Assembly: GCA_035656825.1 (NCBI GenBank)
Contig: DASRRR010000110.1
Location: 1 to 42,925 of the forward strand
Direction of reading: 5' to 3'
DNA: 42,925 nt
DNA from: Tepidisphaeraceae bacterium
GTDB lineage: Bacteria; Planctomycetota; Phycisphaerae; Tepidisphaerales; Tepidisphaeraceae
This document shows, in pieces, positions 1-42,925 of the stretch. Within the stretch, counting starts at the first letter, position 1, and the number at the start of each line of letters is the position of its first letter. Under the pieces are notes generated by a model, which saw only the letters and a list, made by a program, of their open reading frames with translations, was not told the origin of the DNA and ran no database searches. The position numbers and the translations under genes were made by a program.

Positions 1-200
1 CGGATCAGCTTTATCGACACGCTGCGTTGGCTGCTGAGCGCTAGTCCGGGGGAGGAACTGGGGGATCTGGTGATCAATCCCCGGCGACCGGGACGTCATG
101 AGCCGCGGAAGATCAAGGACTTGAAGGATACGTATCGCAAGATGACCAGCCCGAGGAGTGAACTACGAAAAGCCCTGAAATATCAGGGGAAAGCTGCTTA
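1..200 (+). mobile_element. C-terminal end of a DDE (IS4/IS5-superfamily-like) transposase; 5' part lies outside the window
   Basis: Frame-1 translation ...GDLVINPRRPGRHEPRKIKDLKDTYRKMTSPRSELRKALKYQGKAA*. The P-R-R-P-G-R-x-E-P-R...K...Y...M-T-x-P-R pattern matches typical IS4-type transposase C-termini. G/T-ending codons unlike the following C-rich block. Family recall from memory, not searched. Confidence 0.45.
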
Positions 201-299
201 AGGCAATGGCATTCGGGACACTGCTGCTTTTCCTATTTACGCTCGTTCACCTTTATATCTTGAAATCAAAACGCAATCTCATTGATTTCATCCCGCACC

Positions 300-630
300 C
301 ATGACCAAAATTCCTCCAATGAAACAACACCTCTTTAACCTCACCACCACCCTCTCCCTCCTGCTCCTCCTCTCCATCTCCCTCCTCTGGCTCGCCCCCT
401 CCGGCTCCTCCCACCGCCTCGCCTACCGCCACCTCACCGGCCGCCAGTGGCTCCTCACTCTCCTCACCGCCATCCTCCCCCTCACCTGGCTTACTCGACG
501 CCATCGCTCCCATTCCTTTCCATTATCCCCCACAACTTCACAACCTTCACCCCCTCCTCCTTCATTAGTCATTACTCATTCGTCATTCCTTCGTCATTCG
601 GATTTAGTCATTCGTCATTTCTTCCTATAA
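300..630 (+). repeat. ~330-bp polypyrimidine (C/T >~90%) low-complexity tract ending in clustered GTCATTC/CTCATTC heptamers
   Basis: Directly visible: 330-540 is nearly purine-free on the + strand; 560-625 contains tcattactcattcgtcattccttcgtcattcggatttagtcattcgtcatttc. Confidence 0.7.
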
Positions 631-639
631 TTCTTCCCC

Positions 640-1107
640 ATGAACCGCCGAAACTTCCTCCGCTCCACCGCCACCCTCGCAGCCGCTGCCTCCAACACCC
701 CCCTCCTCGAAGCCGGCTACTCCTCCACCACCTCCTACCACGCCTTCGCCACCGACGACAATCCCCCCGGCCGCCAATTCTCCTACGCCCAAGGCGCGCA
801 AACCTCCATCTCCCGCTGGAACCAGCACGCCCAGGCCCAGCCCAAGCTCCCCCACTTCCCCGAAGTCCCCGTCGGCTGGGACAACTCCCCCCGCTACGGC
901 AACCGCGCCCACATCTGCGTCAATCGCACCGCCGACCAGTTCGAACGCCTGCTAGTCGCCGCCAAACATTTCATCGCCAACCAAAAATCCACTCCCCCCG
1001 CCATCTACATGGGTGCCTGGAACGAATGGACCGAAGACCACTACCTCCTCCCCGACGAACTCTACGGCTACTCCTACCTCGAAGCCATCCGCCGCCAATT
1101 CGCCTAA
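640..1107 (+). CDS. Tat-signal protein; C-terminal region resembles WbsX-like glycosyl hydrolase/transferase family (AWNEWTE..YLLPDE), probably a truncated or remnant gene
   Basis: N-terminal MNRRNFLRSTATLAAAA twin-arginine motif; C-terminal ...IYMGAWNEWTEDHYLLPDELYGY recalls the Glyco_tran_WbsX motif; only 155 aa, so likely a fragment. Confidence 0.45.
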   Translation: MNRRNFLRSTATLAAAASNTPLLEAGYSSTTSYHAFATDDNPPGRQFSYAQGAQTSISRWNQHAQAQPKLPHFPEVPVGWDNSPRYGNRAHICVNRTADQFERLLVAAKHFIANQKSTPPAIYMGAWNEWTEDHYLLPDELYGYSYLEAIRRQFA

Positions 1108-1498
1108 CCCAACACATACCCAAACAAATACCATATTTTTATCTTGACTACCCCCCCTCATTCCGATACACTTCCCCATTCCAGTAATGGAGACCTCAAC
1201 CAGGTCATTCTTTGAAAATTAAATCATCCATTCCATGAGTCGCTTCGACTCCCTTTTGGGGTTCTTCGCCGTACACAAAGGGGTTGTTTAGACGTCGTTC
1301 AGGTGTCAAAAAGGGGTCGTTCGGGGGGCGCTTTGGGGGCGCTTTTTTCCACCTCCATTCCCACTATCCAATTCATAAATACCTGCTGAATTTGGATTTA
1401 TGGATTTTTCGCCCGATATAAACAACCCCCCCATTCGTAATAGTTCCCTCCACAGCACTCCGATACACTTCCTACTGTACTTTCATTAGGAGTCTTCT

Positions 1499-3682
1499 AT
1501 GTATCTCGCCAACGTGCTCATCACCTCCAACCTCCTCGCTGACATCCCCTGGGCCTGGAGCCTCGCCATTGTCCTCGCGATCATCGTCTTCCTCATCTGG
1601 TGCGGCAAAACCGTCGTCGGTGCCCAGTACATCCCCAACGACCGCGTCGGCGTCGTCGAAAAACTCTGGTCCGGCAAAGGCTCCGTCCCCGAAGGTCATA
1701 TCCTCGCCCTCAACGGCGAAGCCGGCTACCAATCCGAACTCCTCCGCGGCGGTCTCCACTTCTGGCTCTGGCGCTGGCAGTACCGCGTTCACAAAATGCC
1801 TCTCGTCACGATCTCCCAAGGCAAAATTGGTTACATCTACGCCCGCGACGGCACCGCTCTCTCCCCCAGCCAGACCCTCAGCCAGGTCATCGACTGCAAC
1901 TACTTCCAGGACGCCCGCAAATTCCTCACCGCCGGCGGTCAACGCGGCCGCCAACGCGCCATCCTTCGCGAAGGGGCCTACGCCATCAACCTCGCCCTCT
2001 TCGTCGTCATCGCCGAAGACGGCGTCTACCACATGGAACTCCAGGGCAAACAGGAAATCGAACGCGTCGTCTCCTGGCAAAAAGAACTCCGCGCCCAGGC
2101 CGGCTTCAACCCCGTCCTCATCGGCGAACCCCTCACCACCCCCGACCTCATCGACCCCACCAAATCCATCGTCGTCGACTCCATCGGCATCGTCACCGTC
2201 CACGATGGCCCGTCTCTCGCCCCCGGCGAAATCATCGCACCCTCCGTCGGCAATAACGCCTCCGAAGAAAACTACCACAACAACTTCCAGGACACCGAAG
2301 CCTTCCTCCGTGCCGGCGGGCGCCGCGGCCGGCAGTACGTCCCCCTCACCGACGGCACCTACTTCATCAACCGCTGGTTCGCCACCATCGAAATCATCCC
2401 CAAGATGATCGTCCCCATCGGCTACGTCGGCGTCGTCGTCTCCTACTACGGCCCCCCCGGCGTCGACGTCTCCGGCGATGCCTTCCGTCATGGCGAGCGC
2501 GTCGCCCGCGGCGAACGCGGCGTCTGGGAAAAACCCCTCGGCCCCAGCAAATACCCCTTCAATACCTACGCAGGTCACGTCGTCATCGTCCCCACCACCA
2601 ACTTCGTCCTCCACTGGATTACCGGCCGAACCGAAGCCCACCGCTATGACGATTCCCTCCAATCCATCGACCTCGTCACCAAGGACGCCTATGAGCCCCT
2701 CCTCCCTCTTTCCGTCGTCGTCCACATCGACTACATGAAAGCCCCCAGCGTCATCCAGCGCTTCGGCGACGTCAAAAAACTCATCACCCAGACCCTTGAC
2801 CCCATGCTCTCGGCCTACTTCCGCGACGTCGCTCACAAATGCACCATGCTCGAACTCCTCCATGACCGCGACGAGATCCAGACCCAGGCCAAAGTCGCCC
2901 TCAAGGAACGCTTTAAGGAATTCGACATCGAATGCGTCGACGTCCTCATCGGCAAGCCCGACACCGCCGAAGCCGGCGGCAAAATCGAAACCCTCCTCGA
3001 ACAGCTCCGCCTGCGCCAGCTCTCCGTCGAACAGATCGAGACCTACGAACACCAGCGCAAGGCCGCCGACGAGCAGCGCAAACTCAATGACGCCCAGGCC
3101 CTAGCCTCCAAGCAAAAGGAGCTCACCGACTCCCAGGTGCAAATCCGCATCGCCGAAAACGCCGGCGACGCCGACCTCTCCCGCGCCCGCAAGGTGGCGC
3201 AGCAGCAGATCGTCATGGCCGAAGCGCAGCTCGAACAATCGCGCCGTCAGGCCGAGCAGATGGTCGTCACCGCCAAGGCCGAATCCGAACAGCGCACCCT
3301 CGCCGGCCGCGGTGAATCCCAGCGCCAAATGCAGATCGGCCTCTCCGAAGCCGCCGTTCTCACCCGCAAAATCGCCTCCTTCGGCGACCCCCGCCTCTAC
3401 GCCCTCTCCCTCGCCGCCGAATACCTCTCCAAATCCACCCAACCCCTCGTCCCCGAACACGTCTTCATGACCGGCGGCTCAACCGATGGCGCCAGCGCGT
3501 CCCAAGGCATGCTCGGCACCCTCCTCACCATGCTCGTCGCTGAAAAGTCCGGCTTCAACCCCAGCTCCACACCCGAATCCGCCGAAGTCCGCGACCTCAT
3601 CGACCGCATCACCCGCCAAGCTGTGACCTCCATGGGCCAACCCGTCCCCGAAACCCCCGACGGAAAGGAAGTCTCAACCTAA
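1499..3682 (+). CDS. flotillin / SPFH (band-7) family membrane protein with long C-terminal coiled coil
   Basis: AGGAG 7 nt upstream of ATG; N-terminal TM helix, SPFH-like core, then EA-rich coiled coil (QRKAADEQRKLNDAQALASKQKELTDSQ...); uniform C-ending codon usage. Confidence 0.7.
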   Translation: MYLANVLITSNLLADIPWAWSLAIVLAIIVFLIWCGKTVVGAQYIPNDRVGVVEKLWSGKGSVPEGHILALNGEAGYQSELLRGGLHFWLWRWQYRVHKMPLVTISQGKIGYIYARDGTALSPSQTLSQVIDCNYFQDARKFLTAGGQRGRQRAILREGAYAINLALFVVIAEDGVYHMELQGKQEIERVVSWQKELRAQAGFNPVLIGEPLTTPDLIDPTKSIVVDSIGIVTVHDGPSLAPGEIIAPSVGNNASEENYHNNFQDTEAFLRAGGRRGRQYVPLTDGTYFINRWFATIEIIPKMIVPIGYVGVVVSYYGPPGVDVSGDAFRHGERVARGERGVWEKPLGPSKYPFNTYAGHVVIVPTTNFVLHWITGRTEAHRYDDSLQSIDLVTKDAYEPLLPLSVVVHIDYMKAPSVIQRFGDVKKLITQTLDPMLSAYFRDVAHKCTMLELLHDRDEIQTQAKVALKERFKEFDIECVDVLIGKPDTAEAGGKIETLLEQLRLRQLSVEQIETYEHQRKAADEQRKLNDAQALASKQKELTDSQVQIRIAENAGDADLSRARKVAQQQIVMAEAQLEQSRRQAEQMVVTAKAESEQRTLAGRGESQRQMQIGLSEAAVLTRKIASFGDPRLYALSLAAEYLSKSTQPLVPEHVFMTGGSTDGASASQGMLGTLLTMLVAEKSGFNPSSTPESAEVRDLIDRITRQAVTSMGQPVPETPDGKEVST

Positions 3683-3912
3683 CGGCGGCGGCGGCTGATC
3701 CCCCGTCCGCAGCCGGGCATGGGACGAGACATGATCATAAACGCTCGCCAAAAATCCAAGGAACGGAAACTTCGCTTTGGGAAAAGGACTAGGCCCCAGC
3801 CGCTCCAGCGCACTCGGCACATCCGCCGGCGCCGACTGCAACGCATCGATGCCCGCTCCCGCGGAGTAGAAGCTACGAGTATCAGAAATGGGAGTCGTCA
3901 ATTCAGTCATGG

Positions 3913-6900
3913 TTAATATTCTCCAACTGCCTCGGAGGACAACGACAGATAATCCTTCAATTCCGACGTCGACAGATTCGTCAGCCACTCATCGCCGGCC
4001 CGGACAATCTGATCCGCCAGCGCAATCTTGTCAGTGAGGAGCTTATCGATGCGTTCTTCCATCGTGCCGACGCAGATGAACTTGTGGACCTGCACCTTGC
4101 GCGTCTGCCCGATGCGATACGCCCGATCTGTCGCCTGTGCTTCGACGGCGGGATTCCACCAGCGGTCGAAGTGGAAAACATGATTGGCGGCAGTCAGGTT
4201 CAACCCCAGCCCGCCGGCACGGAGCGAGAGGATAAAGAGTTTGACCCCATTGGCACCCTCTTGAAACTGGGTGATCATCTCATCGCGCCGCTTGGCCGGC
4301 GTGCCGCCATGCAGGAAGAGCGTCGGCGCTTTCAGCCGCTCGGCAATCACGCGCTCCAGCAGATGCCCCATCTCCCGATATTGAGTGAAGATCAGCGCAG
4401 CATCTCCCGCCTCGATCACTTCTTCCAACATCTCAATAAGCCGTTCGCATTTCCCCGAACGACCTGACAAAATTTCGGTCAACGGATCGCGCGGCTCCGG
4501 GGCGATCTTGCTCAGCAGCGCCGGATGATCGCAGACCTGTTTGAGCCGAGTGAGCGCCGCCAAAATCAGTCCGCGCCGCCGAATCCCCGTCGCCGCGTCG
4601 ATCTGCGAAAGCATTTCGCTGGTGATCTTCTGATAGACCGACGCCTGTTCGGGAGTGAGATTACAGTAAACTTTCATCTCCATCTTCTCAGGCAGATCGC
4701 CGGCGATGGTCGGGTCGGCCTTGGTGCGGCGGAGGATGAAGGGTTGAATCATCTTCCGCAACTGCTGAGCGCGCGACTGATCCTGCAACTTCTCGATCGG
4801 CACACTGAAGCGTTCGCGGAAGTCGGCGGCGGTTCCGAGCAGGCCGGGGTTGAGCAGTTCCATGATCGACCAGAGCTCGGAGAGGTGGTTTTCGATAGGG
4901 GTTCCGGTCAGTGCGACGCGATGGGGGGCGGCCAGGGAACGGATGGCGATGGAGCTGGCGGCGGCGGGGTTTTTGATTTTCTGGGCTTCGTCCAGAGCCA
5001 ATCGTCGCCAGGGGACGCGCTGGATGTCGTCGAGGTCGCGATGGGCGAGGGCGTAGGAGGTAATAACGATATCGTGTTTGCCGGCGGCGGTGACGAAAGT
5101 GTCGCCGGCCAGGCGTTCGGGACCATGATGGATCAGGACTTTGAGGGAAGGGGCGAAGCGTTCGAGTTCGCGGGTCCAGTTGCCGACGACGCTGGTCGGC
5201 GCAAAGAGGAGGGTGGGTCCGAGCGAGGCGGTGTTTTCGGCTTTGATGTCGCGGCGTTCGTGGAGAAGGAGGGCGATTAATTGAACGGTTTTACCGAGGC
5301 CCATGTCGTCGGCGAGGCAGGCACCGATGCCTAGGCGATGGAGGAAGGAGAGCCATTCGAGACCGCGATGTTGGTAGGGGCGGAGTGTGCCGAGGAAATT
5401 GGGGGGTGGGGGCACTTCCTGTAATTTTGCGTTGGGGGCGTGTTCGAGGAGATCTTGGACCCAGCTTGTGCCGGTCAGGGCCAGAACGGGGAGGCCGGCT
5501 TCTGGGGTTTTTTGCGCGTAGGCCGTGCGGAAGGCTTCGGCGAGGGTCATCTTGCCCTTGGGCTTTTTGGAGAGGAATTCGACGGCGCGTTTGGCGGCTT
5601 CGAGGTCGATGGTCAGCCATTGGCCTTTGTAGCGGGCGAGGGGGGAGTTTTGTTTGACGAGGTATTTGAAGTCTTCCATGGAGAGGCGGAGGTCGCCGAC
5701 GGCGATTTGCCAGTCGAAGTCGAGGAGGGAATCGAGGCCGAATTTACCGGTGGAGACGTCGGGGAATTGGCCGGCGCGGGCTTGCTGGTCGGGGCCGACC
5801 ATGGCGCTTTCGTCGAGGACGTCGTCGTCGCGTTCGGCTTCGTTGGGGGCGAGGGCGAGGACTAAGCCGAGTTCGCGATCGCGGCGGGTGGCCCAATCGG
5901 GGAGGGTTACGCCGAAGGCGTTTTCGCGGAGGACGGTGGCGTATTGGCGGATGAAGAGGTGGGCTTCGATGGTGGAGATTTCGAGTTGGGCGGGTTCGGG
6001 TGTGGTCAGGACGCGCTGGAGGGCGGGGAAGATTTCGGAGGCGCGCTGCAGTTCGGAGAGGAGGTGGGCGCGGCGGTTGGCGAGATTGCGGCCGAGGACG
6101 CCGGGGAGATCGTGGCGCTGTTTCCACAATTCGGCGGCGTCGGTGGTTTCGCCGTCGGGTTCGAGGGATTGGAGTTGGACGCGAATCTGCCAGAGGGGCT
6201 GGTTGGCGGGGGCGGGGGCAATTTCGGCGCTGGGGTCGGTGATCGTTTCGCCATTTGCCGCCGCGTCGGCGGATTCGCTGGCGAGGGCGGCTTCGATGAG
6301 GGTTGCGTCTTCGGGGGAATCGTCTTCGGGTTCTTCGAGCACAAAGCAGATGCGCAGGGGCGCGGCGGCGGTGCTTTCGTCGAGTTTGCCGATCCAGGAG
6401 CGGACTTGATCGACGAGGAAGTTGTTTTCGAGGACGTCGCTGCCGCGGACTTGCGGGTCGGAGCCGAGGAGTGCGGAGAGCCAGCGGAGTTCGCCGGGGG
6501 CTTCGGGTTCGGCGGCTTTTTCGTGGGCACGGCTGAAGAATTCGTCGGTGGAGACGTCACGGCGGATGATGGCGTCGGCGGTGGTGGCGAGGAAGGATTC
6601 GACGATGTGGGCGGGATCGATGTCTTCGCCGGCGATTCCGTGGAAGGCGCGGGCGGCGGGGGGCATCGCCAGGCCGAACTGTTCGAGGCGGTGCAGTTCT
6701 TCTTCGCCGAGCATGAGCAGGCGCCAGTTGGCGCGGGCACCTTCTTCGGTGGCGGCGAGGTCGGGGAAGAATTGTTGTTTGGCCAGGCGCTCGGTGACGA
6801 AGGTCGCCAGCCGGGAGAAGTAGCGGTAGGAATCGCCGCAGCAATCGGCGGTGGGCTGGGTGGGGGAGACCAGCAGGTCGACGGCTTCGGTTGGGGATAG

Positions 6901-7183
6901 GCGGAGGGTTGGAATTGTGAAAGGCGACACTTGGGTGAATGGGCCGGAGCGGATTGGTTCGCCGGCGTCGTTGGTGGGGAGGTCGAGGACCAGGGACGAT
7001 TCTCCAGCGGCTGAGGCGAGCAGCGATTCGGCGGCGAGTTCGCCGATCATGGCGCGCAGGCGTTCGACGGTTAGTGCGCGCGGGTGCGGGCGGGCGCCAG
7101 TGCCGGGCGTGTTGGGGCTGGGATCTCCGTCGTCGGACCAGAGGTGCAGATGAGATTGAAACCAGGCGGCATGGAGTGGCATC
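3913..7183 (-). CDS. SNF2-family helicase (DEAD/DEAH box helicase with N-terminal SNF2-helicase-associated domain), ~1090 aa; alternative upstream start at 7320
   Basis: Motif I LADDMGLGKTVQLIALLL, DEAH-like LALDEAQKIKN, motif VI-type HELICc LRAGGLGLNLTAANHVFHFDRWWNPAVEAQATDRAYRIGQTRKV. The 46 codons between 7320 and 7183 have atypical composition, so Met at 7183 is preferred. Confidence 0.85.
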
Positions 7184-7350
7184 GTTGTGTTTGGTGATCG
7201 CGGGCGGTCAGGGGATTTTTCGCACTTCCGCCCCACGTTGGGCCGAGAGCCGAATGGGGAAGCATAGGGCCGAAAAGCGAAATGGGTAGGGGTGGCAAAC
7301 CCCCTCGTAAATTCCGGCAATTGCGGGTAAACTCATCGTGCCGGGCGCTG

Positions 7351-7356
7351 TATAAT
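7351..7356 (+). promoter_or_regulatory. TATAAT -10-like hexamer upstream of tRNA-Gly
   Basis: ctgTATAATcaatt 32 nt upstream of tRNA 5' end; no convincing -35 at 17-bp spacing. Confidence 0.25.
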
Positions 7357-7388
7357 CAATTAGCAGCAAACCGGCAAAGGCCGAGTAT

Positions 7389-7460
7389 GCGGGTGTAATT
7401 CAGTGGTAGAATGCCAGCCTTCCAAGCTGGACGTCGAGGGTTCGAATCCCTTCGCCCGCT
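7389..7460 (+). tRNA. tRNA-Gly (anticodon TCC)
   Basis: Acceptor stem GCGGGTG/CGCCCGC with G-T wobble, D-loop AGTGGTAGA, anticodon stem CCAGC/GCTGG with loop CTTCCAA (anticodon TCC), T-arm GAGGG-TTCGAAT-CCCTT, discriminator T; near-identical in architecture to E. coli tRNA-Gly(UCC). CCA not encoded. Confidence 0.9.
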
Positions 7461-7474
7461 TTTCCCCTCTTTGA

Positions 7475-10597: not shown

Positions 10598-10692
10598 TGT
10601 AGTAACCCGGGGTCGTGCGTGCCGGTAAAGATTCTACTACGCTTTGTGCGGCTTGCACGCGAATTGTCGGTACAATCGCCGGAAGGTTTCGC

Positions 10693-11775: not shown

Positions 11776-11785
11776 GGTGTGAACA

Positions 11786-14860: not shown

Positions 14861-14862
14861 CT

Positions 14863-27857: not shown

Positions 27858-27927
27858 GGCAATTCGCCACAGCGCCCTGCACAACACAGGCGCGAACCCT
27901 ACAGTATATAGAACGCATTACTCTCCC

Positions 27928-29211: not shown

Positions 29212-29240
29212 TCCCGCTCCTCTGCTATAACCCGCAGACT

Positions 29241-31057: not shown

Positions 31058-31151
31058 GCAATCATAGTAGCGTCAATCGCCGGATCGGGCAGCGCGGGAT
31101 AGAAGACTTATTTGGGACGTTCTGGCCGCTGGGGTAAAGTCATTGGCTGCG

Positions 31152-33999: not shown

Positions 34000-34058
34000 C
34001 AGACTCCTGATTCAGCCCGGCTTGGCAGGGTGGGGTGTCATGCCTATTGTAGCGAGCT

Positions 34059-34556: not shown

Positions 34557-35506
34557 AACGCGTGGTGCGGCCTTTGATTTATCGTCTGCAACAATCGTTG
34601 CAACGCCGACGCCAGCAGCGAAAAGTCCAGCAGGCCTTGCGCCGCCGCCAACCCGCGGATCCGATTTTCATCTTCGGCTTATCCCGCAGCGGGTCCACCT
34701 GGCTGCAGGACACCATCGGCGCCTGGCACGGGACGGTTTCACTATTCGAGCCGATTCATAAAAAAAATCCCGAGACCATTGGCGCGTTCACGCTCGAAGA
34801 CTGGCGGCCGGGCCAGCAGATGAGCGCCGACGAGCGCCGCGTGCTCGACTCCATTCTGCGCGGAGAGATTTTAACCAAGCGCATTTTGCCCGCCGGACCG
34901 ATGCCAGATGAAATCAACCGTTTCTGCATCAAGTTAATCCACTGCAACAACGGCATGCCGCGCATGGTGCATGACCTGCGCCCACGCTACCGGCCGCTGA
35001 TCATTCTGCGGCATCCGTGCGCCCATGTTGCATCATGGAAACGGCTGAAATGGACCGAAAATTTCGGCGGCCTCGCCGGTCGATATAACGGCCTGCTGGC
35101 GGCGCACCCGCATTTGCGCGAACCCGTCAGCGGGCTATCAACGCCGCTGGATTGGATGGTCGGAAGCTGGTGCCTGGGAAATTATGTCCCGTTGGCGATC
35201 AAGCCTGCAAACCGGTGGACGGTTGTCCGATATGAATCGTTGTTAGCCGAACCGGAGCGAATTCTCGGAGAGATTTTTGCGACCTGGGGAGAGGCAGCCA
35301 TTCCCGCCGAAGTGCTGGGCGCGGTCGGGCGCGTAAGCCGGACCACCTGGCGAAAGGGGCAACCCGCCGGCGCGGTGGCGACAGCCAATTCCTGGCAGGA
35401 AGAGATCAGCCTCGAGGAGAGCCGACAGGTATTTGAAATCTGCCGACGTTTTGGGGTCGAGGTGGACGCTGGTGGATACATGATGAAATCGGGCGGGATC
35501 GGATGA
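34553..35506 (+). CDS. sulfotransferase-family protein
   Basis: IFIFGLSRSGSTWL (5'-PSB PAPS-binding loop), ...ILRHP... (3'-PB-like); start overlaps ribH stop (ATGA). Confidence 0.7.
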   Translation: MKRVVRPLIYRLQQSLQRRRQQRKVQQALRRRQPADPIFIFGLSRSGSTWLQDTIGAWHGTVSLFEPIHKKNPETIGAFTLEDWRPGQQMSADERRVLDSILRGEILTKRILPAGPMPDEINRFCIKLIHCNNGMPRMVHDLRPRYRPLIILRHPCAHVASWKRLKWTENFGGLAGRYNGLLAAHPHLREPVSGLSTPLDWMVGSWCLGNYVPLAIKPANRWTVVRYESLLAEPERILGEIFATWGEAAIPAEVLGAVGRVSRTTWRKGQPAGAVATANSWQEEISLEESRQVFEICRRFGVEVDAGGYMMKSGGIG

Positions 35507-36894
35507 GCCAGCGACGATCTCCGCCGGGACCTTGGAATCCGCCGCTGACGAGTTTGTGGCGGCAACGTGATCTATTGCGATTCCTTCTGCGAATCGGCTC
35601 GCAATACGGCGACCTCTGGCGCTTCCGCGTCGGCAGGCGAAATTATTATGTCCTCAACCATCCGGATCACATCCGCCAAGTCCTGATCGCCGACGCCTCC
35701 AAGTTCATCAAAGGCCCAGCGATTCGCAATGCGCGCATCACGCTCGGCGATGGACTACTCTCCAGTGAAGGCGACCTGCATAAGCAGCAGCGCCGGCTGA
35801 TTACCCCCGTATTTCATCCCACCCGCGTCGCAACCTACGCGGAGCGAATGGTGCAATGTGCTGAAACCATGTGCGCCCATTGGACTGACGGCCAGGTGAT
35901 CGATCTGCACCAGCGAATGACCGCCCTGACCCTCGACGTCGTCACTCAGGTCCTCTTCGGCGGAGAAATCGGCACCGATGTCGGACGCATCGGTGCTGCG
36001 ATGCACGTCCTGGTGAACATGTTTGACCGCGCAAGAAATCCACTGGCGCCACTGCTGAATAAATTGCCGCTGCCAAGTAATTTCCGGTTTCTGCGTGCGC
36101 TGCGCGAAGTGGAGGCAACGCTTCAGGGATTTATCGAAAACAAAAAACGCGGCAATCGCGATCCGAAAAATCCTCCGGATTTATTAGAACTGCTCCTGGC
36201 GACCGGCGGAATGTCGGATAAGCAATTGCGCGACGAAGCGGTGACGCTCTTCACCGCCGGCCACGAAACAACCGCCAACGCGCTGGTCTGGACGTGGTAT
36301 TTGCTCGCGCAGCATCCCGAGGCAGAGCAAAAGTTCCACGAGGAACTCGACCGTGTGCTTGGAGATCGCCTGGCGCGATCAGAAGACCTGGATCATCTGC
36401 CCTATACGCGCATGGTGCTATCCGAATCGATGCGGCTCTACCCGCCCGCGTGGATCGTGGCGCGCCAGGCGGTGGAGAATTACGAAATCGCCGGCTACCC
36501 CATCGCTGCCGGTTCAGTGCTGCTGATGAGTCAATATCTGATCCACCGCGACCCAAGGTTCTGGGGAGATGACCCGACCCGATTTGATCCAGGCCGATTC
36601 ACCGAAGACGCCAAATCCCAGCGCCCGCGCTGGGCCTACTTTCCCTTCGGTGCCGGCCCACGCTCCTGCATCGGCGAAGGTTTCGCCTGGGTCGAGGCGA
36701 TGCTGCTGCTGGCAACCATCGGCCGGCGCTGGCGCTTGCAACTCGTCGACCCACACCAAACGGTGCATTTGCACGCAACCATCACGTTGCGCCCCGAAAA
36801 TGCCATCCCAATGCGGCTGATCAGACGCAATCCCCCGCCGGGCGTTGCCAGCGTGACCCGCGTCTCTATACTGCCACGCGATGCTGACGGTTAA
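35503..36894 (+). CDS. cytochrome P450
   Basis: I-helix FTAGHETTANAL, ExxR ESMRLYPP, haem-binding FPFGAGPRSCIGEGFA; start overlaps the sulfotransferase stop (ATGA). Confidence 0.9.
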   Translation: MSQRRSPPGPWNPPLTSLWRQRDLLRFLLRIGSQYGDLWRFRVGRRNYYVLNHPDHIRQVLIADASKFIKGPAIRNARITLGDGLLSSEGDLHKQQRRLITPVFHPTRVATYAERMVQCAETMCAHWTDGQVIDLHQRMTALTLDVVTQVLFGGEIGTDVGRIGAAMHVLVNMFDRARNPLAPLLNKLPLPSNFRFLRALREVEATLQGFIENKKRGNRDPKNPPDLLELLLATGGMSDKQLRDEAVTLFTAGHETTANALVWTWYLLAQHPEAEQKFHEELDRVLGDRLARSEDLDHLPYTRMVLSESMRLYPPAWIVARQAVENYEIAGYPIAAGSVLLMSQYLIHRDPRFWGDDPTRFDPGRFTEDAKSQRPRWAYFPFGAGPRSCIGEGFAWVEAMLLLATIGRRWRLQLVDPHQTVHLHATITLRPENAIPMRLIRRNPPPGVASVTRVSILPRDADG

Positions 36895-37381
36895 GGAACG
36901 ACAACGCGTGCGCGAACTGGCGATGCAGGTCCTTTTTGCCTGGGACGCCGCCGGTACGGGCACCGCGGACGAAGCCGCCGCCCGCCAGATCATGCACGAC
37001 GGCAGCGACAACCCCGTCGTGCGCCAGCAAGCGGGCGAACTGGCACTAAAAACCTGGGACCAGCGCGAGATGATCGATCAGCGCCTGGAGCGCTTTGCCC
37101 CGAATTGGCCCCCACGCCGCCAGCCGGCAGTCGATCGCAATCTGTTGCGATTGGCGGTCTATGAACTCACCAACACAACTCTCCCGCCACAGATTTTGAT
37201 CGACGCGGTGATTGAGATCGCCCGCCAATTTTCCACCTCCAACAGCTCCGCGTTCGTCAACGGCGTGCTCGACGCGATCCTCAAAGAACACAACGCCCTG
37301 ATCGCGGGCCTCCCCCCGGCGGTGGTCGAACCCATCCCCGCCCCGACCGAAGGGACCGGCCCCGGAGAAGTCATCGAGTAA
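36881..37381 (+). CDS. nusB: transcription antitermination factor NusB
   Basis: RQRVRELAMQVLFAWDAAG...AVDRNLLRLAVYEL...IDAVIEIARQF...FVNGVLDAI; overlaps P450 3' end by 14 nt. Confidence 0.85.
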   Translation: MLTVKERQRVRELAMQVLFAWDAAGTGTADEAAARQIMHDGSDNPVVRQQAGELALKTWDQREMIDQRLERFAPNWPPRRQPAVDRNLLRLAVYELTNTTLPPQILIDAVIEIARQFSTSNSSAFVNGVLDAILKEHNALIAGLPPAVVEPIPAPTEGTGPGEVIE

Positions 37382-37392: not shown

Positions 37393-38346
37393 ATGGGCTT
37401 CTTCTCCAAAACCATCGATAAACTCAAAGGGGCGCTGCGAAAAACCGCCGCCGTCCTGAATACGGACGTGCGCACCCTCTTCGTCCCCGGCCGCCAGATC
37501 AACGACGAGTTCCTCCAGGAAGTCGAAGAAAAACTCCTCCTCGGCGATTTCGGCGTGCAAAACACAATGCGCATCGTCGACGAAATCCGCGACAAATGGC
37601 GCCTCGGCAAAATCCGCAACGCCGGCGAAGCCGAAACCATCGTCCGCGAACAACTCCTCACCGGCTGGGGCGATCCAACATTACGCGAACTCAAATTCGC
37701 CCCCGCGGGCACGCCCACCGTCATCATGGTCTGCGGCGTCAACGGCGCCGGCAAAACCACTAGCATCTCCAAGCTCACCTGGCTCCTCACCCAGCAGATG
37801 CACAAGAAAGTCATGCTCTGTGCCAGCGATACATTCCGCGCCGCCGCCGTCGAGCAGCTTTCCATCTGGGCCGGCCGCCTCGGCGTCGAAATCGTCAAGC
37901 ACAAGATGGGTGCCGACCCCGCCGCCGTCGCCTACGACGCCTGCGAAGCCGCCAAGTCCCGCGGCATGGACGTCCTGATCGTCGACACCGCCGGCCGGCT
38001 GCACACTCAGGACAACCTCATGCGCGAGCTCGCCAAAATCCGCGACGTCATCGCCAAACGCATCCCCGGCGCGCCCCACGAAGTCATCCAAGTCATGGAC
38101 GCCACCGCCGGCCAGAACGCCATCCGCCAGGCGGAAATGTTCCATAAAGCCGTCACGCTCACCGGCCTCTTCGTCGCCAAACTCGACGGCACCGCCAAAG
38201 GCGGCTTCGTCTTCTCCATCCGCGACCAGCTCAAAGTCCCCGTCAAATTCATCGGCCTCGGCGAGACCCCCCAGGACATCGAAACCTTCGACCCCGCTCG
38301 CTTCATTAACGCCCTCTTCGGCGACCCCGGAGCGGCCGAGTCGTGA
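37393..38346 (+). CDS. ftsY: signal recognition particle receptor FtsY (short form without acidic A-domain)
   Basis: MVCGVNGAGKTTSISKL (G1), DTAGR (G3), ...KLDGTAKGG (G4-region). Confidence 0.9.
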   Translation: MGFFSKTIDKLKGALRKTAAVLNTDVRTLFVPGRQINDEFLQEVEEKLLLGDFGVQNTMRIVDEIRDKWRLGKIRNAGEAETIVREQLLTGWGDPTLRELKFAPAGTPTVIMVCGVNGAGKTTSISKLTWLLTQQMHKKVMLCASDTFRAAAVEQLSIWAGRLGVEIVKHKMGADPAAVAYDACEAAKSRGMDVLIVDTAGRLHTQDNLMRELAKIRDVIAKRIPGAPHEVIQVMDATAGQNAIRQAEMFHKAVTLTGLFVAKLDGTAKGGFVFSIRDQLKVPVKFIGLGETPQDIETFDPARFINALFGDPGAAES

Positions 38347-39554
38347 GCGCCCCCGCCACCCAGCGCGACGTCCGCATCGCTTATATCGTCGAAGGAATCG
38401 CCTGCCTCGGCACCAATCTCCTCCTCATCGGCGTCTACTTCTACACCCACTCCCGCCTCGGCTGGACCCTCAAACAAAATTTCCTCCTCGCCACCGGCCA
38501 AGGCCTCGTCGGCGGCGTCGGCTCCCTGCTCGCCCACCCGATCTCCTCCCGCCTCTCCCGCCGCGGCGCCCTCATCGGCATCTACATCGCCATGGCGCTC
38601 CTCCCCGCCATCCTGCTGATGGTCGATTCCGCCGCCGCCATCGCCACGTTGCTCCTGATCTACACGATGGTCGTCAGCCTCAGTTGGCCCATGCTCGAAA
38701 GCTTCGTCGCCACCGGCGTACAACACGAAGAACTCTCCCGCCGCATCGGCATCTACAACCTCGTCTGGTCCGGTGCCGCCGTCCTCATCATCGCCGCCAG
38801 CGGCTGGCTGATTAAGCACATCCCCTCCGCGGTCTTCATCGTCCCACTGGTCGTTCATGCCGTCTCCGCGATCCTGATCATGCTCGTCCGCGAACCGGCC
38901 GACCCGGATGTCGCCCACGAAGCCGTCCACGCCGAACCCGGACTCTTACAACTTCGCCGCCTGGCGCTTGCGCTCTCCCGCGTCTCTCTCCCCGCCACGT
39001 ACGTCGTCATCTACAGCATGATGGCGATGCTTCCCTCATTACCCGCTATCCGCACACTCTCCCCCACCATGGCGACCCTCATCGGCAGCACCTGGATGGC
39101 CGCCCGCTGGCTGACCTTTCTCATCCTCGGCTCGACCGTCTGGTGGCACACCCGCCCGCGCATCCTCGTCGCCGCCGCCATCGCGATGGTCCTCGCTTTC
39201 CTCGGCATCATCCTCCCCGGCTCGCGCGTCTGGATCTGGGCCGGCTCCTCCGACTCTGCCCTGCTCTCCTGGATGATCGCCTCGCAAATCCTCCTCGGCC
39301 TCTGCGTCGGTGCCATCTACGCCGCCAGCCTCTACTTCGGCATGGTCCTCTCCGGCGGCTCGGCTGAACACGCCGGCTACCACGAATCCCTCATCAACTT
39401 CGGCTCCGCCATCGGCCCCATCGCCGGCGTCGTCGCCGAAGTCTGGTACCCCGGCAACATCTACGTCGTCGTCTCCGCCGTCACCGGCGTTGTCGGCCTC
39501 TCGGTCGCCGCCACAGTCTTCACCTCCCTCCTCGCCGGCAAGCGCCAAGCTTAA
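38343..39554 (+). CDS. polytopic membrane protein, probably an MFS-type transporter
   Basis: ~12 hydrophobic segments in 6+6 arrangement; no sharp motif; start overlaps ftsY stop. Confidence 0.45.
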   Translation: MSAPATQRDVRIAYIVEGIACLGTNLLLIGVYFYTHSRLGWTLKQNFLLATGQGLVGGVGSLLAHPISSRLSRRGALIGIYIAMALLPAILLMVDSAAAIATLLLIYTMVVSLSWPMLESFVATGVQHEELSRRIGIYNLVWSGAAVLIIAASGWLIKHIPSAVFIVPLVVHAVSAILIMLVREPADPDVAHEAVHAEPGLLQLRRLALALSRVSLPATYVVIYSMMAMLPSLPAIRTLSPTMATLIGSTWMAARWLTFLILGSTVWWHTRPRILVAAAIAMVLAFLGIILPGSRVWIWAGSSDSALLSWMIASQILLGLCVGAIYAASLYFGMVLSGGSAEHAGYHESLINFGSAIGPIAGVVAEVWYPGNIYVVVSAVTGVVGLSVAATVFTSLLAGKRQA

Positions 39555-39584
39555 TCTCGCATATCGCCAATTCATCGTGATTCC

Positions 39585-39596
39585 TTTCACGTGAAA
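39585..39596. promoter_or_regulatory. perfect 12-bp palindrome TTTCACGTGAAA, followed (39667..39722) by a 15-bp imperfect inverted repeat TTCGGCGGCGGCCGG...CCGGCTCGCCGCCGAA
   Basis: Directly visible in the 200-bp gap upstream of the 39758 membrane-protein gene. Confidence 0.3.
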
Positions 39597-39757
39597 ACGA
39601 CAAGATTTTTCTTCCGCTTTCTATGGGGTGTTTGTCATACTGACAACCACAGGCTTCGTACACCCGTTCGGCGGCGGCCGGCACGTGGTTTTGCGAAAGC
39701 TACTCGCCGGCTCGCCGCCGAACTACAGGAACTTCTCACCCTTCGTGGAGGTCTCGT

Positions 39758-40999
39758 ATGTCGGCAGTATCACCACTCCCACGCGGCTCTCTCACGCCCG
39801 TACGTTCTCTTCTGCGGCTCGTCGTCGATCACAATCCGTTCTACCTTCTCAGCGCCGTCTTCATGATGTCCGGCTGTCTGACCCTCACCAACTCCTTATC
39901 CTACAGCCCCCTCCGAGCCAGCCAACTCCTCGCCCTTGTTCTGACCCTCAACGCTTACGAACTACTGCTCGTCGGCCTGGGTCTCTACCTCATCGTCCGC
40001 CGCGGCGTCCGGCGCGATGGCATGTTCCTCCTCCTCATCGAAGCCGCCTTCCTGGTCGACATGGCCTTCCTTAACGCCGAGGTCTACTCCATCCGTCCCG
40101 CCCTCGGCCTGCTCGTTAACCTCCTCGTCTTCTCCCTCGCGGTCGTCAAACTCACCGCCATCTTCCGCGTCCTGCACTTCTCCACCCGCGACGGCCTGCT
40201 CCCCTTCATTCTCGCCGAACTCTTCATCCTCTTCTCCATCCCCGGCATTTTTGCTCAAGCCGCCCTGGGTCATGACGGCCGCCTCTCCCCCTGGCTCATG
40301 TACGCCGCCTGGTCCCTTCTCGGCATGCTTCCCGCCGCATACATATTCGTCGTCCGCCAACGCCCGCTACTAACGATCCGCTCCGGAAATCTCGTCCGCG
40401 ACGTCCTGACCCGCGTCCTCGTCATCGTCCCGATCATCTCCATCATCGTCCACCTCAGCACCGCCAACTGGGTCTACAAACTCCACTTCAACCTCGCCAA
40501 TATCGCCCCCTTCCTCATCGGCCTCGGTTTCGCCATCGGCCACTACGACAACCACCTTTACACCTACGCCCGCCGCGTCCGCGCCCAGCTCCTCCTCCCC
40601 GCGCTCGCTGTCGCTTTATCCCTCAGCTACCCCGACACCCTCGTCTACGTCATGACCGGCCCGGACTGGTCCCCGCTGCGCCTCGCCCTCGTCGCCGCCG
40701 GCATCGTCTATCTCGAAGGCCTGCGCTTCCATCGCCACATGATCTTCGCCTACGCCGCCGCGTTCTGCGCCATCGCCTTCGGCATGGGCCCCTCCGTCGA
40801 TGACATGCAGCAGAACATCACCGTCACCGCCGAACACACTCAAACCTGGCTCGAACGCCTCACCCCCCGCACCGGCCAGCAATGGGGCGTCCTCTCCGTC
40901 ATCACTAGCTTTCTCCTGCTGGGCATTGGCTTTATCGTCAGCCTCCTCAAGCCCGCAACCGTGCAAATATCCCCCGATGACACGATCCGATCCGATTGA
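39758..40999 (+). CDS. hypothetical integral membrane protein (~10 TM)
   Basis: Long hydrophobic ORF with uniform C-ending codon usage; no family recognised. Confidence 0.45.
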   Translation: MSAVSPLPRGSLTPVRSLLRLVVDHNPFYLLSAVFMMSGCLTLTNSLSYSPLRASQLLALVLTLNAYELLLVGLGLYLIVRRGVRRDGMFLLLIEAAFLVDMAFLNAEVYSIRPALGLLVNLLVFSLAVVKLTAIFRVLHFSTRDGLLPFILAELFILFSIPGIFAQAALGHDGRLSPWLMYAAWSLLGMLPAAYIFVVRQRPLLTIRSGNLVRDVLTRVLVIVPIISIIVHLSTANWVYKLHFNLANIAPFLIGLGFAIGHYDNHLYTYARRVRAQLLLPALAVALSLSYPDTLVYVMTGPDWSPLRLALVAAGIVYLEGLRFHRHMIFAYAAAFCAIAFGMGPSVDDMQQNITVTAEHTQTWLERLTPRTGQQWGVLSVITSFLLLGIGFIVSLLKPATVQISPDDTIRSD

Positions 41000-41121
41000 T
41001 ACAATGTCATGATATTGAGAAGGTCATGCAACAGACGCCAACAACTACTGTGACACGCACCCAATGATCCCCGGCGGCTGAACGCACTTATTATCCATCA
41101 TCACGACCTTCTCAAACAATA

Positions 41122-41150
41122 GACCCCCGGACACACTCCGGGGGTCTTTG
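41122..41150 (+). terminator. Rho-independent terminator
   Basis: GACCCCCGG-acacact-CCGGGGGTC followed by TTTG, ~120 nt after the 39758..40999 gene. Confidence 0.55.
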
Positions 41151-41191
41151 CTTGCATGTACTTTTCTCCTCCTGCACGCCTACGATTCAAC

Positions 41192-42205
41192 ATGGCAACT
41201 GAAACAATCAATGATTCCCAGGACAACGCAGTCGTCATGGACGCCTACTCCAAGGCCGTCATCGGCGCCGTCGACACCGTCGCCCCCGCCGTCGTCAATA
41301 TCGAAGTCGAACGCGAACTCCCCGCCAACCACCCCGCCCGCCGTTCCGGCCAGGAACGCGGCCCCGCCGGCGCCGGCAGCGGTTTCATCATCACCCCCGA
41401 TGGCTTCATCCTCACCAACAGCCACGTCGTCCATGGTGCCGACGGCATCACCATCACGCTCTCCGATGGTTCCAAATACCCCGCCACCCTTGTCGGCGAT
41501 GACCCCGACACTGACCTTGCCGTCATCCACACCACCGCCCCCGGCCTGCACGCCGTCACGCTCGGCGACTCCGCCGCGCTGCGCCCCGGTCAGCTCGTTA
41601 TCGCCATCGGAAACCCCCTCGGCTTCCAGGCGACCGTCACCGCCGGCGTCGTCAGCGCCATGGGCCGCACCTTCCGCTCCAAAAACGGCCGCCTCATCGA
41701 CAACGTCATCCAAACCGACGCCGCCCTCAACCCCGGCAACTCCGGCGGACCCCTCGTTAACTCCCATGGCCAGGTCGTCGGCGTCAACACCGCCATCATC
41801 CCCTCCGCCCAGGGCATCTGCTTTGCCGTCCCAGGAAACACCGCCAAGTGGGTCGCCGCCCGACTCATCCGCGACGGCCACATCCGCCGCGCCTACCTCG
41901 GCGTCGCCGGCCAGGACGTCCCGCTCCAACGCAAAGTCGTCCGCTTTTTCGGCCTGGAAAACCAGTCCGGCGTCCTCATCGTCGGCGTCGAAAATGACTC
42001 CCCCGCCTCCCGCGCCGGGCTCCGCGAAGGCGACATCCTCCTCTCCGTCGACGGCTACGAAGTCGAAACCATCGACGCGCTCCACAAACTCATGAACGAA
42101 GACCGCGTCGGCCAGGTCGTCGGCATCCGACTCCTCCGCGGCACAGAAGTCATCCGCATCGAAGTCACCCCGATTTCGGGACAGCAAAATCCGTCCCCGA
42201 ATTAA
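41192..42205 (+). CDS. HtrA/DegP-family (S1C) serine protease with C-terminal PDZ domain
   Basis: GSGFIITPDGFILTNSHVV (His), DLAVIH (Asp), GNSGGPLVNSHGQVVGVNTAI (Ser), PDZ ...GVLIVGVENDSPASRAGLREGDILLSVDG... Confidence 0.9.
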   Translation: MATETINDSQDNAVVMDAYSKAVIGAVDTVAPAVVNIEVERELPANHPARRSGQERGPAGAGSGFIITPDGFILTNSHVVHGADGITITLSDGSKYPATLVGDDPDTDLAVIHTTAPGLHAVTLGDSAALRPGQLVIAIGNPLGFQATVTAGVVSAMGRTFRSKNGRLIDNVIQTDAALNPGNSGGPLVNSHGQVVGVNTAIIPSAQGICFAVPGNTAKWVAARLIRDGHIRRAYLGVAGQDVPLQRKVVRFFGLENQSGVLIVGVENDSPASRAGLREGDILLSVDGYEVETIDALHKLMNEDRVGQVVGIRLLRGTEVIRIEVTPISGQQNPSPN

Positions 42206-42540
42206 AACGGCAGCGCAATCCGCCGCGTCGTCTCATCCAACGGCACGATCTCCACCCGCAGCGTACTCGCCGGCAGCAGCGACTCCACTCGCGAAGGCCA
42301 TTCCACCACCACCACCCCCCCCTGCTCCAATAACTCCAAAAAACCAATCCCCTCCAGATCATCTGCCCCCGCCGTCCGGTACGCATCCAGATGAAACACC
42401 GTGAGCGAAGCCGTCGGATAAATATTCAGCAGCGTAAACGTCGGCGAAGACACCATCCGCCTATTCCCCCCCAATCCCAGCACCATCCCCCGCACAAACT
42501 GCGTCTTCCCCGCCCCCATCTCCCCCGCCAGCGCCACCAC
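42202..42540 (-). CDS. tsaE: tRNA threonylcarbamoyladenosine biosynthesis protein TsaE; true N-terminus probably extends ~27 codons upstream (to ~42650) but no canonical start codon is found there
   Basis: VVALAGEMGAGKTQFVRGM (P-loop), SSPTFTLLNIY. In-frame upstream codons encode ...FERVSNSVEETEGIAGEFARGLPGGS typical of the TsaE N-terminus, bounded by a stop at 42655..42657 with no ATG/GTG/TTG between. Confidence 0.7.
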   Translation of the reverse strand: MVALAGEMGAGKTQFVRGMVLGLGGNRRMVSSPTFTLLNIYPTASLTVFHLDAYRTAGADDLEGIGFLELLEQGGVVVVEWPSRVESLLPASTLRVEIVPLDETTRRIALPF

Positions 42541-42613
42541 CGACCCGCCCGGCAGTCCGCGCGCAAACTCCCCCGCAATCCCCTCCGTCTCCTCAACCGA
42601 ATTTGAAACACGC

Positions 42614-42925
42614 TCAAAGCGAATGTTCCCACCCCTTACGCGCCAGTGGCCCGACTATCCCATTCTGCCGAATCAACACCTCCCGCCCCTCCGTAATCAC
42701 CCCAATGCGATAAGCATTCGCCGTACTCAAATCCGCGCTCGCACAAGTAAACAAAAGCTCATGATCTTCCCCATCATGCAGCGCATGTTCCAGCGGCGAA
42801 ACCCGATCCCGCCGAAATAGCTCAATCGCATCATCATGAATCGGTATCGCATCCGCCTCAATGATCGCCCCCACTCCCGACTGCTCGCAGATATGCCCCA
42901 GATCGCGCGAAAGCCCATCCGAAAT
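42614..42925 (-). CDS. thiL: thiamine-monophosphate kinase, C-terminal part (gene start beyond window end)
   Basis: ...ISDGLSRDLGHICEQSGVGAIIEADAIPIHDD...GEDHELLFTCASAD... (PurM-like C-domain with the GxDYELLFT hallmark). Confidence 0.6.
   Translation of the reverse strand: MSDGLSRDLGHICEQSGVGAIIEADAIPIHDDAIELFRRDRVSPLEHALHDGEDHELLFTCASADLSTANAYRIGVITEGREVLIRQNGIVGPLARKGWEHSL

Follow-up and report, generated by a model that had tools for sequence, protein, structure and literature searches.

A kilobase-scale mosaic of strong strand-asymmetric base composition in chromosomal DNA of an uncultured Tepidisphaeraceae bacterium

Introduction

Separate codon usage of leading- and lagging-strand genes has been described in Borrelia burgdorferi, Treponema pallidum, Chlamydia trachomatis and C. 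muridarum, and Lawsonia intracellularis, and was attributed to mutation pressure (PMC2089121, PMC2671203). In animal mitochondria, strand asymmetry reverses after inversion of the control region or origin (PMC4182315; 10.1101/2020.05.09.085712; PMC2939890). Sign changes of GC skew, (G-C)/(G+C), are also taken to indicate inverted genes or segments in bacterial chromosomes and to flag misassembly, an approach that is cited in PMC9836097. Here we analyzed a stretch of 42,925 nucleotides (the window; contig DASRRR010000110.1 of assembly GCA_035656825.1), in which genes of two mirror-image codon classes lie in strongly skewed blocks of both signs. This DNA comes from the chromosome of an uncultured member of the Tepidisphaeraceae (Phycisphaerae, Planctomycetota), a soil-type planctomycete. 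Its host is labelled Tepidisphaeraceae bacterium, and its proteins are listed in NCBI as those of a metagenome-assembled genome with third-party annotation (FtsY HZZ43941.1, SNF2 HZZ43916.1).

Several other settings are relevant to such a pattern. Merrikh and Merrikh 2018 and SkewIT reportedly use skew sign changes as a signal of inversion or misassembly. Mammalian chromosomes contain replication skew domains, with abrupt upward jumps at origins, that extend over hundreds of kilobases and have small skew. Resected DNA breaks acquire strand-coordinated mutations as one-off C-to-T/G clusters.

The window shares features with each of these systems and departs from each of them (blocks are named in Table 1). 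Like the Borrelia and Chlamydia type, it has two classes of genes with complementary third-position usage (G+T excess versus C+A) that is set by strand. Unlike that type, in which polarity switches just at origin and terminus, it has four switches in 43 kb together with unskewed stretches. At four-fold degenerate sites its asymmetry amounts to ~85% of one base, per-gene skew extends to ±0.97, and the difference is almost purely G versus C in DNA of 61% GC. Borrelia-type classes are defined by leading versus lagging strand, whereas a leading or lagging assignment in the window would be tentative. To our knowledge, the strength of the bias is well above that of the Borrelia, Treponema, Chlamydia and Lawsonia cases. 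As in mitochondria, the bias is strongest at four-fold sites, the same genes are reversed between related lineages, and amino-acid composition is affected. Mitochondrial genomes, however, are small, replicate in a single asymmetric mode and have a single polarity, while the window belongs to a bacterial chromosome with several domains side by side. Local reversal together with a change of gene orientation is also the signature left by inversion, and block E and possibly block B fit it. Unlike that signature, one switch falls within an intact gene whose surrounding gene order is conserved, and block edges are free of inverted repeats and mobile elements. Both polarities are moreover at full strength, so that recent and resident sets are indistinguishable, unlike in the described inversion cases. 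Many polarity domains per chromosome and sharp switches that ignore genes recall mammalian domains and break clusters, but the synonymous sites of the window are near-saturated in a bacterium under purifying selection. A literature search found no description of such skew in Planctomycetes or Tepidisphaeraceae.

Results

Two mirror-image codon classes

In 1-kb windows, GC skew of the + strand reached extremes of -0.43 and +0.46, and skewed blocks maintained values of ±0.30-0.38 over 3-12 kb. Block borders were determined by binary segmentation of G versus C on the + strand. Split statistics rose to ~650-700 and the switch inside the SNF2 helicase gene lay far above its permutation null, so that the skew sign changes reported by a first-pass annotation of the sequence proved quantitatively real. 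Genes were mapped by Pfam scans of long open reading frames (ORFs), which confirmed the gene list of that annotation.

In 11 genes, hereafter C-class (the WbsX fragment, Band7, VWA, isomerase-like, CarbopepD_reg, SDR, MFS, ftsY, MFS2, hyp378, and HtrA), 75-91% of four-fold sites carried C. In six others, hereafter G-class (HlyD, RND, GH92, hyp188, tsaE, and thiL), 63-89% carried G. The pooled A/C/G/T composition of four-fold sites was 0.036/0.835/0.075/0.053 in the C-class and 0.060/0.101/0.785/0.055 in the G-class. At pyrimidine-ending two-fold sites the share of C was 0.87 and 0.22, and at purine-ending two-fold sites the share of G was 0.29 and 0.83, respectively. The codon sets were TTC/GAC/ATC/GAA/AAA in the C-class versus TTT/GAT/ATT/GAG/AAG in the G-class, with TTC at 0.92 versus TTT at 0.87, GAC at 0.81 versus GAT at 0.88, and GAA at 0.91 versus GAG at 0.76. 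Both the pooled values and the codon table are thus reverse complements of each other, which upholds the earlier description of two mirror-image classes. Across the genes of the window, coding-strand four-fold skew ranged from -0.95 to +0.97, against a per-gene baseline in unskewed relatives within about ±0.45 and mostly within ±0.3.

The asymmetry at four-fold sites was essentially G versus C, and a T/A (keto/amino) part was seen only at two-fold sites, where C-to-T and A-to-G asymmetries were roughly 3-8 fold. A keto-versus-amino bias, as had been proposed, therefore describes the two-fold sites and does not describe the four-fold sites. The skewed state also lifted four-fold GC from ~0.78 to ~0.92. 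Four-fold sites require a net pyrimidine-to-purine flux, either by G:C to C:G changes or by two-step paths.

A balanced class, with G approximately equal to C at four-fold sites, occupied two multi-gene stretches (17035-20543 and 31152-37381). Its pooled four-fold and two-fold composition was that of L007, an unskewed relative. A half-way state between the two extremes was a poor fit to the balanced blocks, which contained two to three times more four-fold A/T than either extreme and no excess of T. Per-gene four-fold composition was also inspected for a hysteresis in which transitions come first, and the deviations were within sampling error. The first-pass annotation had counted hyp367 (its PEP-CTERM #1) and the DUF1559 gene as G-class and had drawn a G-rich block over ~4700-20550. 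The two genes do not belong to that class, with four-fold skews of just +0.17 and +0.32, and the block stands as far as ~16760, the remainder (16760-20550) being weakly G-rich.

The bias belongs to the DNA strand

The sign of the + strand was unbroken over three changes of gene orientation (VWA to HlyD, MFS to hyp188, and HtrA to tsaE); in block B it continued over the divergent junction 10597/10615 and in block F over the convergent overlap 30491-30494. Strong pairs were defined as adjacent genes that both had an absolute four-fold skew of at least 0.4. At five loci of the clade, oppositely oriented strong neighbours kept the + strand sign in 8 of 10 pairs, and co-oriented strong pairs flipped in 0 of 21. 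Intergenic DNA within blocks had the same sign as its block, at -0.20 to -0.46 in C-rich blocks (block A, -0.36 at 1-639 and -0.28 at 1108-1498) and, for example, +0.45 at 27061-27182 in block E.

The effect of neighbouring bases was mirrored as well. When contexts were defined by the 5' and 3' neighbours, the C fraction in the C-class correlated with the G fraction in the reverse-complement context of the G-class (r = 0.74, p = 0.024, nine contexts), whereas comparison of the two classes in the same codon context gave no positive correlation (r = -0.57). Non-synonymous sites shifted alike: A in the window faced G in the relative L005 at 122 positions versus 40 in the opposite sense, and C in the window faced G in L005 at 88 versus 46. 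The bias thus acts at the DNA level, is reverse-complement symmetric and independent of gene orientation, and reaches positions that change amino acids.

Orthologues differ in sign and strength

The relatives used for comparison were L005 (JGI 3300045996), L006, L007, L008, L009, L010, L014, and L015. FtsY of L005, L009 and L014 was 87-92% identical to that of the window (87-88%, 90%, and 92%, respectively), and these three and the window were approximately equidistant from one another (NusB ~71% identical, MFS 58-67%). Coding-strand four-fold skew of ftsY was -0.79 in the window, -0.07 in L014, +0.19 in L009, and +0.78 in L005. The syntenic nusB, ftsY, MFS, hyp and HtrA genes of L005 carried 84-90% G at four-fold sites and its minus-strand genes were C-class, hence one polarity extends over all 12.5 kb of that locus. 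The SNF2 gene was C-class in the window and in L008 and G-class (+0.63) in L015. In all, orthologues of ftsY, HtrA, MFS and SNF2 switched class between relatives, demonstrating that sign and strength of the bias at one locus differ between related lineages. Scans of GTDB and JGI with the VWA protein returned only relatives of 49-50% identity, which were without skew.

Mosaics were also present in L010 and L015, and the same phenomenon was seen in L005, L008, L010 and L015, which come from independent samples. Orthologues of opposite class, together with the evidence for a strand effect, therefore exclude codon selection and the genes' own transcription as causes. The earlier reading of a DNA-strand bias in place of expression-linked codon choice was borne out by the reverse complementarity, including that of neighbour context, by the continuity over opposite neighbours, and by orthologues of opposite class.

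Sign switches and block boundaries

The sign of the + strand switched four times, at 4804, within 17.0-22.9 kb, at ~23.9 kb, and at ~27.35 kb. At least five flips had been claimed; four are true changes of sign, and two further transitions lead into or out of balanced DNA. Two switches lie inside genes, as had been proposed. The change point within the SNF2 gene was abrupt, at 4804 (support 4792-4813), with a statistic of 153 versus a permutation 99.9th percentile of 18. The gene spans the switch on the minus strand and yet is intact, with the Pfam domains DUF3670, SNF2-rel_dom and Helicase_C. On its 3' side the switch adjoins a patch in which third-position skew of the + strand was -0.42 to +0.05. 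The change point in the DUF2293 gene (27183..27857) was near 27353 with a statistic of 20, just inside the annotated ORF and beside a divergent intergenic region.

Most boundaries followed gene borders. The step at 17031/17035, where skew went from +0.68 to -0.15, about 0, coincides exactly with the stop of the GH92 gene and the start of the amidohydrolase gene. Balanced DNA became C-rich at ~22386-22873, the start of block D, and the switch at ~23900 sits in a 92-bp convergent intergenic region. At ~31060 and ~37390 only the amplitude changed, into and out of the balanced block G. The putative internal alternation that had been read in ribH comprises ~100 sites.

Both strong-to-strong flips between adjacent genes of the window (Band7 to SNF2 and hyp326 to isomerase-like) coincided with a change of orientation, with both neighbours C-class. 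The switch from SDR to DUF2293 followed the same pattern, though DUF2293 is weakly skewed, and gene orientation changes at both end switches of block E. Since an inversion preserves coding-strand composition, neighbours that keep their class at a flip are what an inversion would leave. For block E, no matching gene order was found among the relatives, and the relative with a CarbopepD_reg protein, L010, differs in gene order. Block D with its gene hyp326 is flanked by a direct repeat of 173 nt, the copies of which are 78.6% identical (90% over a 77-nt core). The second copy, made up of the intergenic region and the 3' end of the xylose-isomerase-like gene, coincides exactly with the boundary between blocks D and E. 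This repeat suggests a scar of insertion or duplication, with block D an inserted module. In block G, ribH and nusB are separated by an insertion of the sulfotransferase and P450 genes; L006 and L007, which are unskewed, have ribH, nusB and ftsY side by side.

Table 1. Skew blocks, segments and further features of the window. Genes named by family or symbol were identified with Pfam; hypothetical proteins are labelled hyp. Skew refers to the + strand.
Feature	Position	Skew	State, content and four-fold sites
Block A	1..3682	-0.33	Strongly C-rich; WbsX-type glycosyltransferase fragment and Band7/flotillin, both +, C-class; four-fold C 0.88-0.91
Weakly skewed patch, 1.1 kb	3683..4803		Convergent intergenic region and last ~297 codons of SNF2
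Block B	4804..17031	+0.35	Strongly G-rich; minus strand, SNF2 helicase 5' part and VWA/BatA-like protein (C-class) with tRNA-Gly between the two; plus strand, HlyD, AcrB-type RND pump and GH92 (G-class); four-fold C 0.88 (VWA), four-fold G 0.85 (RND)
Block C	17035..22385		Ordinary, near-balanced; amidohydrolase, cobalamin riboswitch with hyp367, DUF1559 protein, 1.8 kb without supported gene; four-fold skews -0.03, +0.17, +0.32 (amidohydrolase, hyp367, DUF1559)
Block D	22386..23873		Isolated C-rich module; hyp326, + strand; four-fold skew -0.53
Block E	23874..27353	+0.38	Strongly G-rich; xylose-isomerase-like protein, CarbopepD_reg protein, SDR, all minus strand, C-class; four-fold C 0.75-0.88
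Block F	27354..31057	-0.30	Moderately C-rich; DUF2293 3' part, hyp427 and MFS transporter on +, hyp188 minus, G-class; + strand four-fold skews -0.21, -0.32, -0.68, -0.49
Block G	31058..37381	-0.01	Ordinary, balanced; GT2, GT4, UbiA, ribH, sulfotransferase, P450, nusB; four-fold skews -0.32 to +0.23
Block H	37393..42925	-0.32	Strongly C-rich; ftsY, second MFS transporter (MFS2), hyp378 and HtrA on +, C-class; tsaE and thiL fragment minus, G-class; four-fold C 0.75-0.84; four-fold G 0.89 (tsaE), 0.75 (thiL)
Segment	1-3658	-0.33	
Segment	3659-4689	-0.09	
Segment	4690-16759	+0.35	
Segment	16760-20876	+0.09	
Segment	20877-24059	-0.12	
Segment	24060-27358	+0.38	
Segment	27359-30952	-0.30	
Segment	30953-37912	-0.01	
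Segment	37913-42925	-0.32	
SNF2 gene	3913-7320		Minus strand
tRNA-Gly	7389-7460		
Cobalamin riboswitch	18392-18612		+ strand; RF00174
hyp367	18618-19721		
Stretch without Pfam-supported gene	20544-22872		2.3 kb
Tandem repeat	20931-21182		21-nt unit
Direct repeat, first copy	22213-22385		
Direct repeat, second copy	23874-24040		
Sulfotransferase and P450	34553-36894		
Mismatch cluster	42646-42676		31 bp, thiL fragment

Continuity of the assembly

Contigs from the Logan collection (SRR11833507; L001 and L013) were 100% identical to the window at 7433-19773 and 19748-36229, and the second of them, of 18,016 bp, is implied to run on to ~37763. All inflections between 10.6 and 31 kb, those at 17.0, 22.9, 23.9, 27.35 and 31 kb among them, therefore lie inside reproduced contigs, and that at 37.39 kb does so by length inference. 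Logan uses a different assembler on possibly the same reads as the JGI assembly, and so represents an independent method and not independent data. The switch at 4804 lies outside the range covered by the second assembly (7433-36229). At or beside every switch the genes are unbroken and their Pfam architecture is coherent. The Logan contigs break at window positions ~7433 and ~19748-19773, in the tRNA-Gly gene or where the DUF1559 protein has its N-terminal prepilin-like motif; these break points are genome-wide repeats and not skew inflections.

A chimeric assembly, which had been offered as one explanation of the pattern, is contradicted by the identical contigs and by the intact genes, including SNF2 across its switch, and it was rejected for 7.4-37.7 kb. 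An assembly or amplification artefact in a broader sense, whether different genomes were joined or pieces of a single genome inverted, would be favoured by the origin of the sequence as a short-read metagenome contig, by the shared reads that may underlie both assemblies, and by coverage of 4804 in one assembly. We consider it extremely improbable, given the reproduction by Logan, the integrity of genes at switches, and the recurrence of the phenomenon in the independent samples named above.

Discussion

We favour, with moderate confidence, an explanation in which an exceptionally strong strand-asymmetric mutation or replication-type pressure is combined with compositional memory in segments that were inverted, inserted or acquired. 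Mutation or repair, acting very asymmetrically on the two strands, would drive the weakly constrained sites of the lineage. G would be gained at the cost of C on one strand of a domain, with two-fold sites favouring T over C and G over A, and the complementary strand would accordingly come to ~85% C at four-fold sites. Whether a gene became C-class or G-class would depend solely on which strand of the domain carried it. The polarity itself may depend on the direction of replication through a segment; we infer replication direction because replication asymmetry is the sole established process that is strand-wide, orientation-independent and reverse-complement symmetric. The pressure may be amplified by altered damage handling. 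Among the candidates, the repair of uracil, hypoxanthine or oxidised guanine, or mismatch repair, may have been lost or altered, or a translesion polymerase may produce G:C to C:G changes. The mosaic would then consist of segments that remember an earlier orientation or origin: inversion would account for block E and insertion of a module for block D, and blocks C and G would have been acquired recently or be unskewed for another reason. The patchwork of inversions and acquisitions suggested by the first-pass annotation is supported to this extent, by flips at orientation changes, by the direct repeat at block D, and by balanced blocks composed like unskewed relatives. It does not extend to the SNF2 switch.

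A number of observations weigh against the explanation that we favour. Replication asymmetry alone would switch polarity just at origin and terminus, two per replicon; this was not the pattern of the window, with four sign switches, including the abrupt one in the intact SNF2 gene, and two unskewed stretches in 43 kb. The link to replication direction is putative. Of the marks that remembered inversions should leave, flips with a change of orientation were found, while a break in gene order was absent at the junction of blocks A and B. L008, whose SNF2 protein is 78% identical, has the same convergent order of Band7 and SNF2 with one polarity over both genes. The window therefore switches at 4804 without a break in gene order, and an inversion with its breakpoint in SNF2 was rejected. 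The 3' and 5' parts of SNF2 also share L008 as nearest relative (the 3' part at 90% amino-acid identity), and the distance ratio of the 3' part was 0.42, beside a family range of 0.45-0.57. Import of the 3' part from a distant donor was rejected, since neither phylogenetic incongruence nor raised synonymous identity to L008 was found. A simple inversion does not explain this switch, which is either an allelic recombination junction or an in-place boundary such as a fork convergence point. Boundaries between tightly linked co-oriented genes without rearrangement, namely nusB to ftsY in the window and FumA to FumB in L015, pose the same difficulty. The adjacent co-oriented fumarase genes FumA and FumB lie at 18887-20388 of L015, with four-fold skews of +0.17 and -0.54; this is a polarity boundary within a presumed single operon. 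Inverted repeats linking block edges were not found in the window, nor were mobile elements or inverted repeats at breakpoints, where the direct repeat around block D was the only such feature. Blocks of both polarities were equally saturated at four-fold and two-fold sites, with no sign of decay in either set. The majority class varied by locus, with 75% C-class in the window and 71% G-class in L005, and no consistent leading-strand assignment emerged. Finally, intergenic DNA was far below four-fold sites both in skew (0 to ±0.46) and in GC (46-66%), which means that it is constrained or that the pressure is stronger in coding DNA.

Several of these difficulties would disappear if kilobase polarity domains arose in place without any rearrangement, their boundaries set by several fork-direction domains or barriers, by a termination zone at 3683-4804, or by polar recombination or repair. 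This alternative, unlikely in our estimate but the main rival, accommodates the abrupt SNF2 switch with conserved gene order and unchanged phylogenetic affinity, the succession of strong negative, weak (1.1 kb) and strong positive skew that resembles a zone between two barriers, the boundaries inside the strings nusB-ftsY and FumA-FumB, the mosaics in L010 and L015, and the equal, full strength of both polarities. On the other hand, with domains of just 1-12 kb a genome would have to contain hundreds of origins or termini, which is unknown in bacteria, and a search of the switches in the window found no DnaA-box cluster or AT-rich unwinding region. The balanced block G is flanked by blocks of the same sign, unlike in a simple origin and terminus model; most boundaries coincide with gene borders, as for rearrangement or transfer filtered by selection; and gene orientation changes at both of the strong flips that were scored. 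Stated more generally, and tentatively since we doubt it somewhat more, a group of Tepidisphaeraceae might have an undescribed polar mutational process that brings free sites to ~90% C or ~90% G per strand in kilobase domains, with boundaries inside intact genes that shift between relatives without rearrangement. Polarity could in that case be set in place by many fork-direction domains or barriers, or by polar recombination or repair tracts. Rather improbable, in our judgment, is a mosaic made by gene flow, with lineages of uniform polarity and a window patched from imported alleles and islands, including a crossover in SNF2. It would agree with the existence of relatives whose skew at the same loci is opposite, weak or absent, with balanced genes composed like unskewed relatives, with the insertion between ribH and nusB, with the direct repeat flanking block D, and with the sharp junction at 4804, where SNF2 is most conserved. 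However, alleles that differ in polarity share only ~75% identity and their longest identical runs measure 20-38 nt, which makes them a poor substrate for homologous recombination, and the SNF2 3' part has the congruent affinity given above. A foreign origin was also rejected for nusB, which lies in a balanced block and is as near to L005 and L009 as those are to each other.

Explanations tied to gene expression fared worse. Asymmetry coupled to transcription, with polarity following the dominant direction including read-through and antisense transcription, would suit domains sized like transcription units, the many boundaries at gene borders, and the lower skew of intergenic than of coding DNA; read-through is conceivable for the G-class tsaE/thiL and hyp188 genes, which lie downstream of convergent C-class genes. 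It is nonetheless very unlikely. Ten genes of L005 are G-class versus C-class in the co-oriented orthologous string of the window, the HlyD-RND-GH92 genes (6.4 kb) would need dominant antisense transcription, and there is no room for a promoter at 17031-17035. Bias was also of uniform strength over genes whose expression must vary widely. In L010 the RecQ gene is strongly skewed and the convergent gene upstream is not; this, the inconstant sign relative to the coding strand and the opposite classes of co-oriented orthologous strings rule out coupling to a gene's own transcription. Taken alone, the C-class pattern of C-ending codons together with GAA and AAA resembles the codon preference that many bacteria show in their highly expressed genes. 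Selection for two preferred codon sets, tied to expression level or tRNA supply, is nevertheless extremely improbable, for the G-class is the exact complement, including T-ending two-fold codons in a genome of 61% GC, and context dependence is mirrored at the level of DNA and not of codons. Class goes with strand and not with gene, orthologues switch class, and intergenic and non-synonymous sites shift likewise; mirror symmetry, mirrored context, strand continuity and orthologue reversal together rule codon selection out.

The strength of the bias, its kilobase mosaic, and the reversal of polarity between orthologues of related lineages make this system distinctive. If the bias is mutational, it is the strongest strand asymmetry known to us in a free-living bacterium and is comparable to that of animal mitochondria. 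Such DNA would provide a natural system in which asymmetry of damage, repair or polymerases pushes neutral sites to near-fixation with G:C to C:G changes prominent. Skew would then be a record of segment orientation and transfer history, from which rearrangement and gene flow could be read by composition. Genomes of this kind would also mislead codon-based gene finding, expression prediction, detection of horizontal transfer, composition binning, and skew-based flags of misassembly, and orthologues of opposite polarity would mislead nucleotide and partly protein phylogenies.

Other features of the window

Base composition beyond skew is also changing fast in the clade of L005, L009, L014 and the window. 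Overall GC was 0.68-0.70 in the three relatives versus 0.61 in the window, and four-fold GC was 0.96-0.98 versus 0.78-0.92, with FtsY still 87-92% identical. In the 2.3 kb of the window without a Pfam-supported gene, the transposase stub of the first-pass annotation could not be confirmed; this stretch contains a 21-nt tandem repeat with at least eight overlapping copies. Apart from six clustered mismatches within 31 bp of the thiL fragment, the window was identical to contig Ga0376653_0001275 of JGI 3300036781 (L002), of whose 43,442 bp it makes up almost the whole, and these mismatches probably represent strain variation or a different version of the assembly. A cobalamin riboswitch (74 bits) was located directly upstream of hyp367, a protein of 367 amino acids without Pfam match, and the gene is probably under control of B12.

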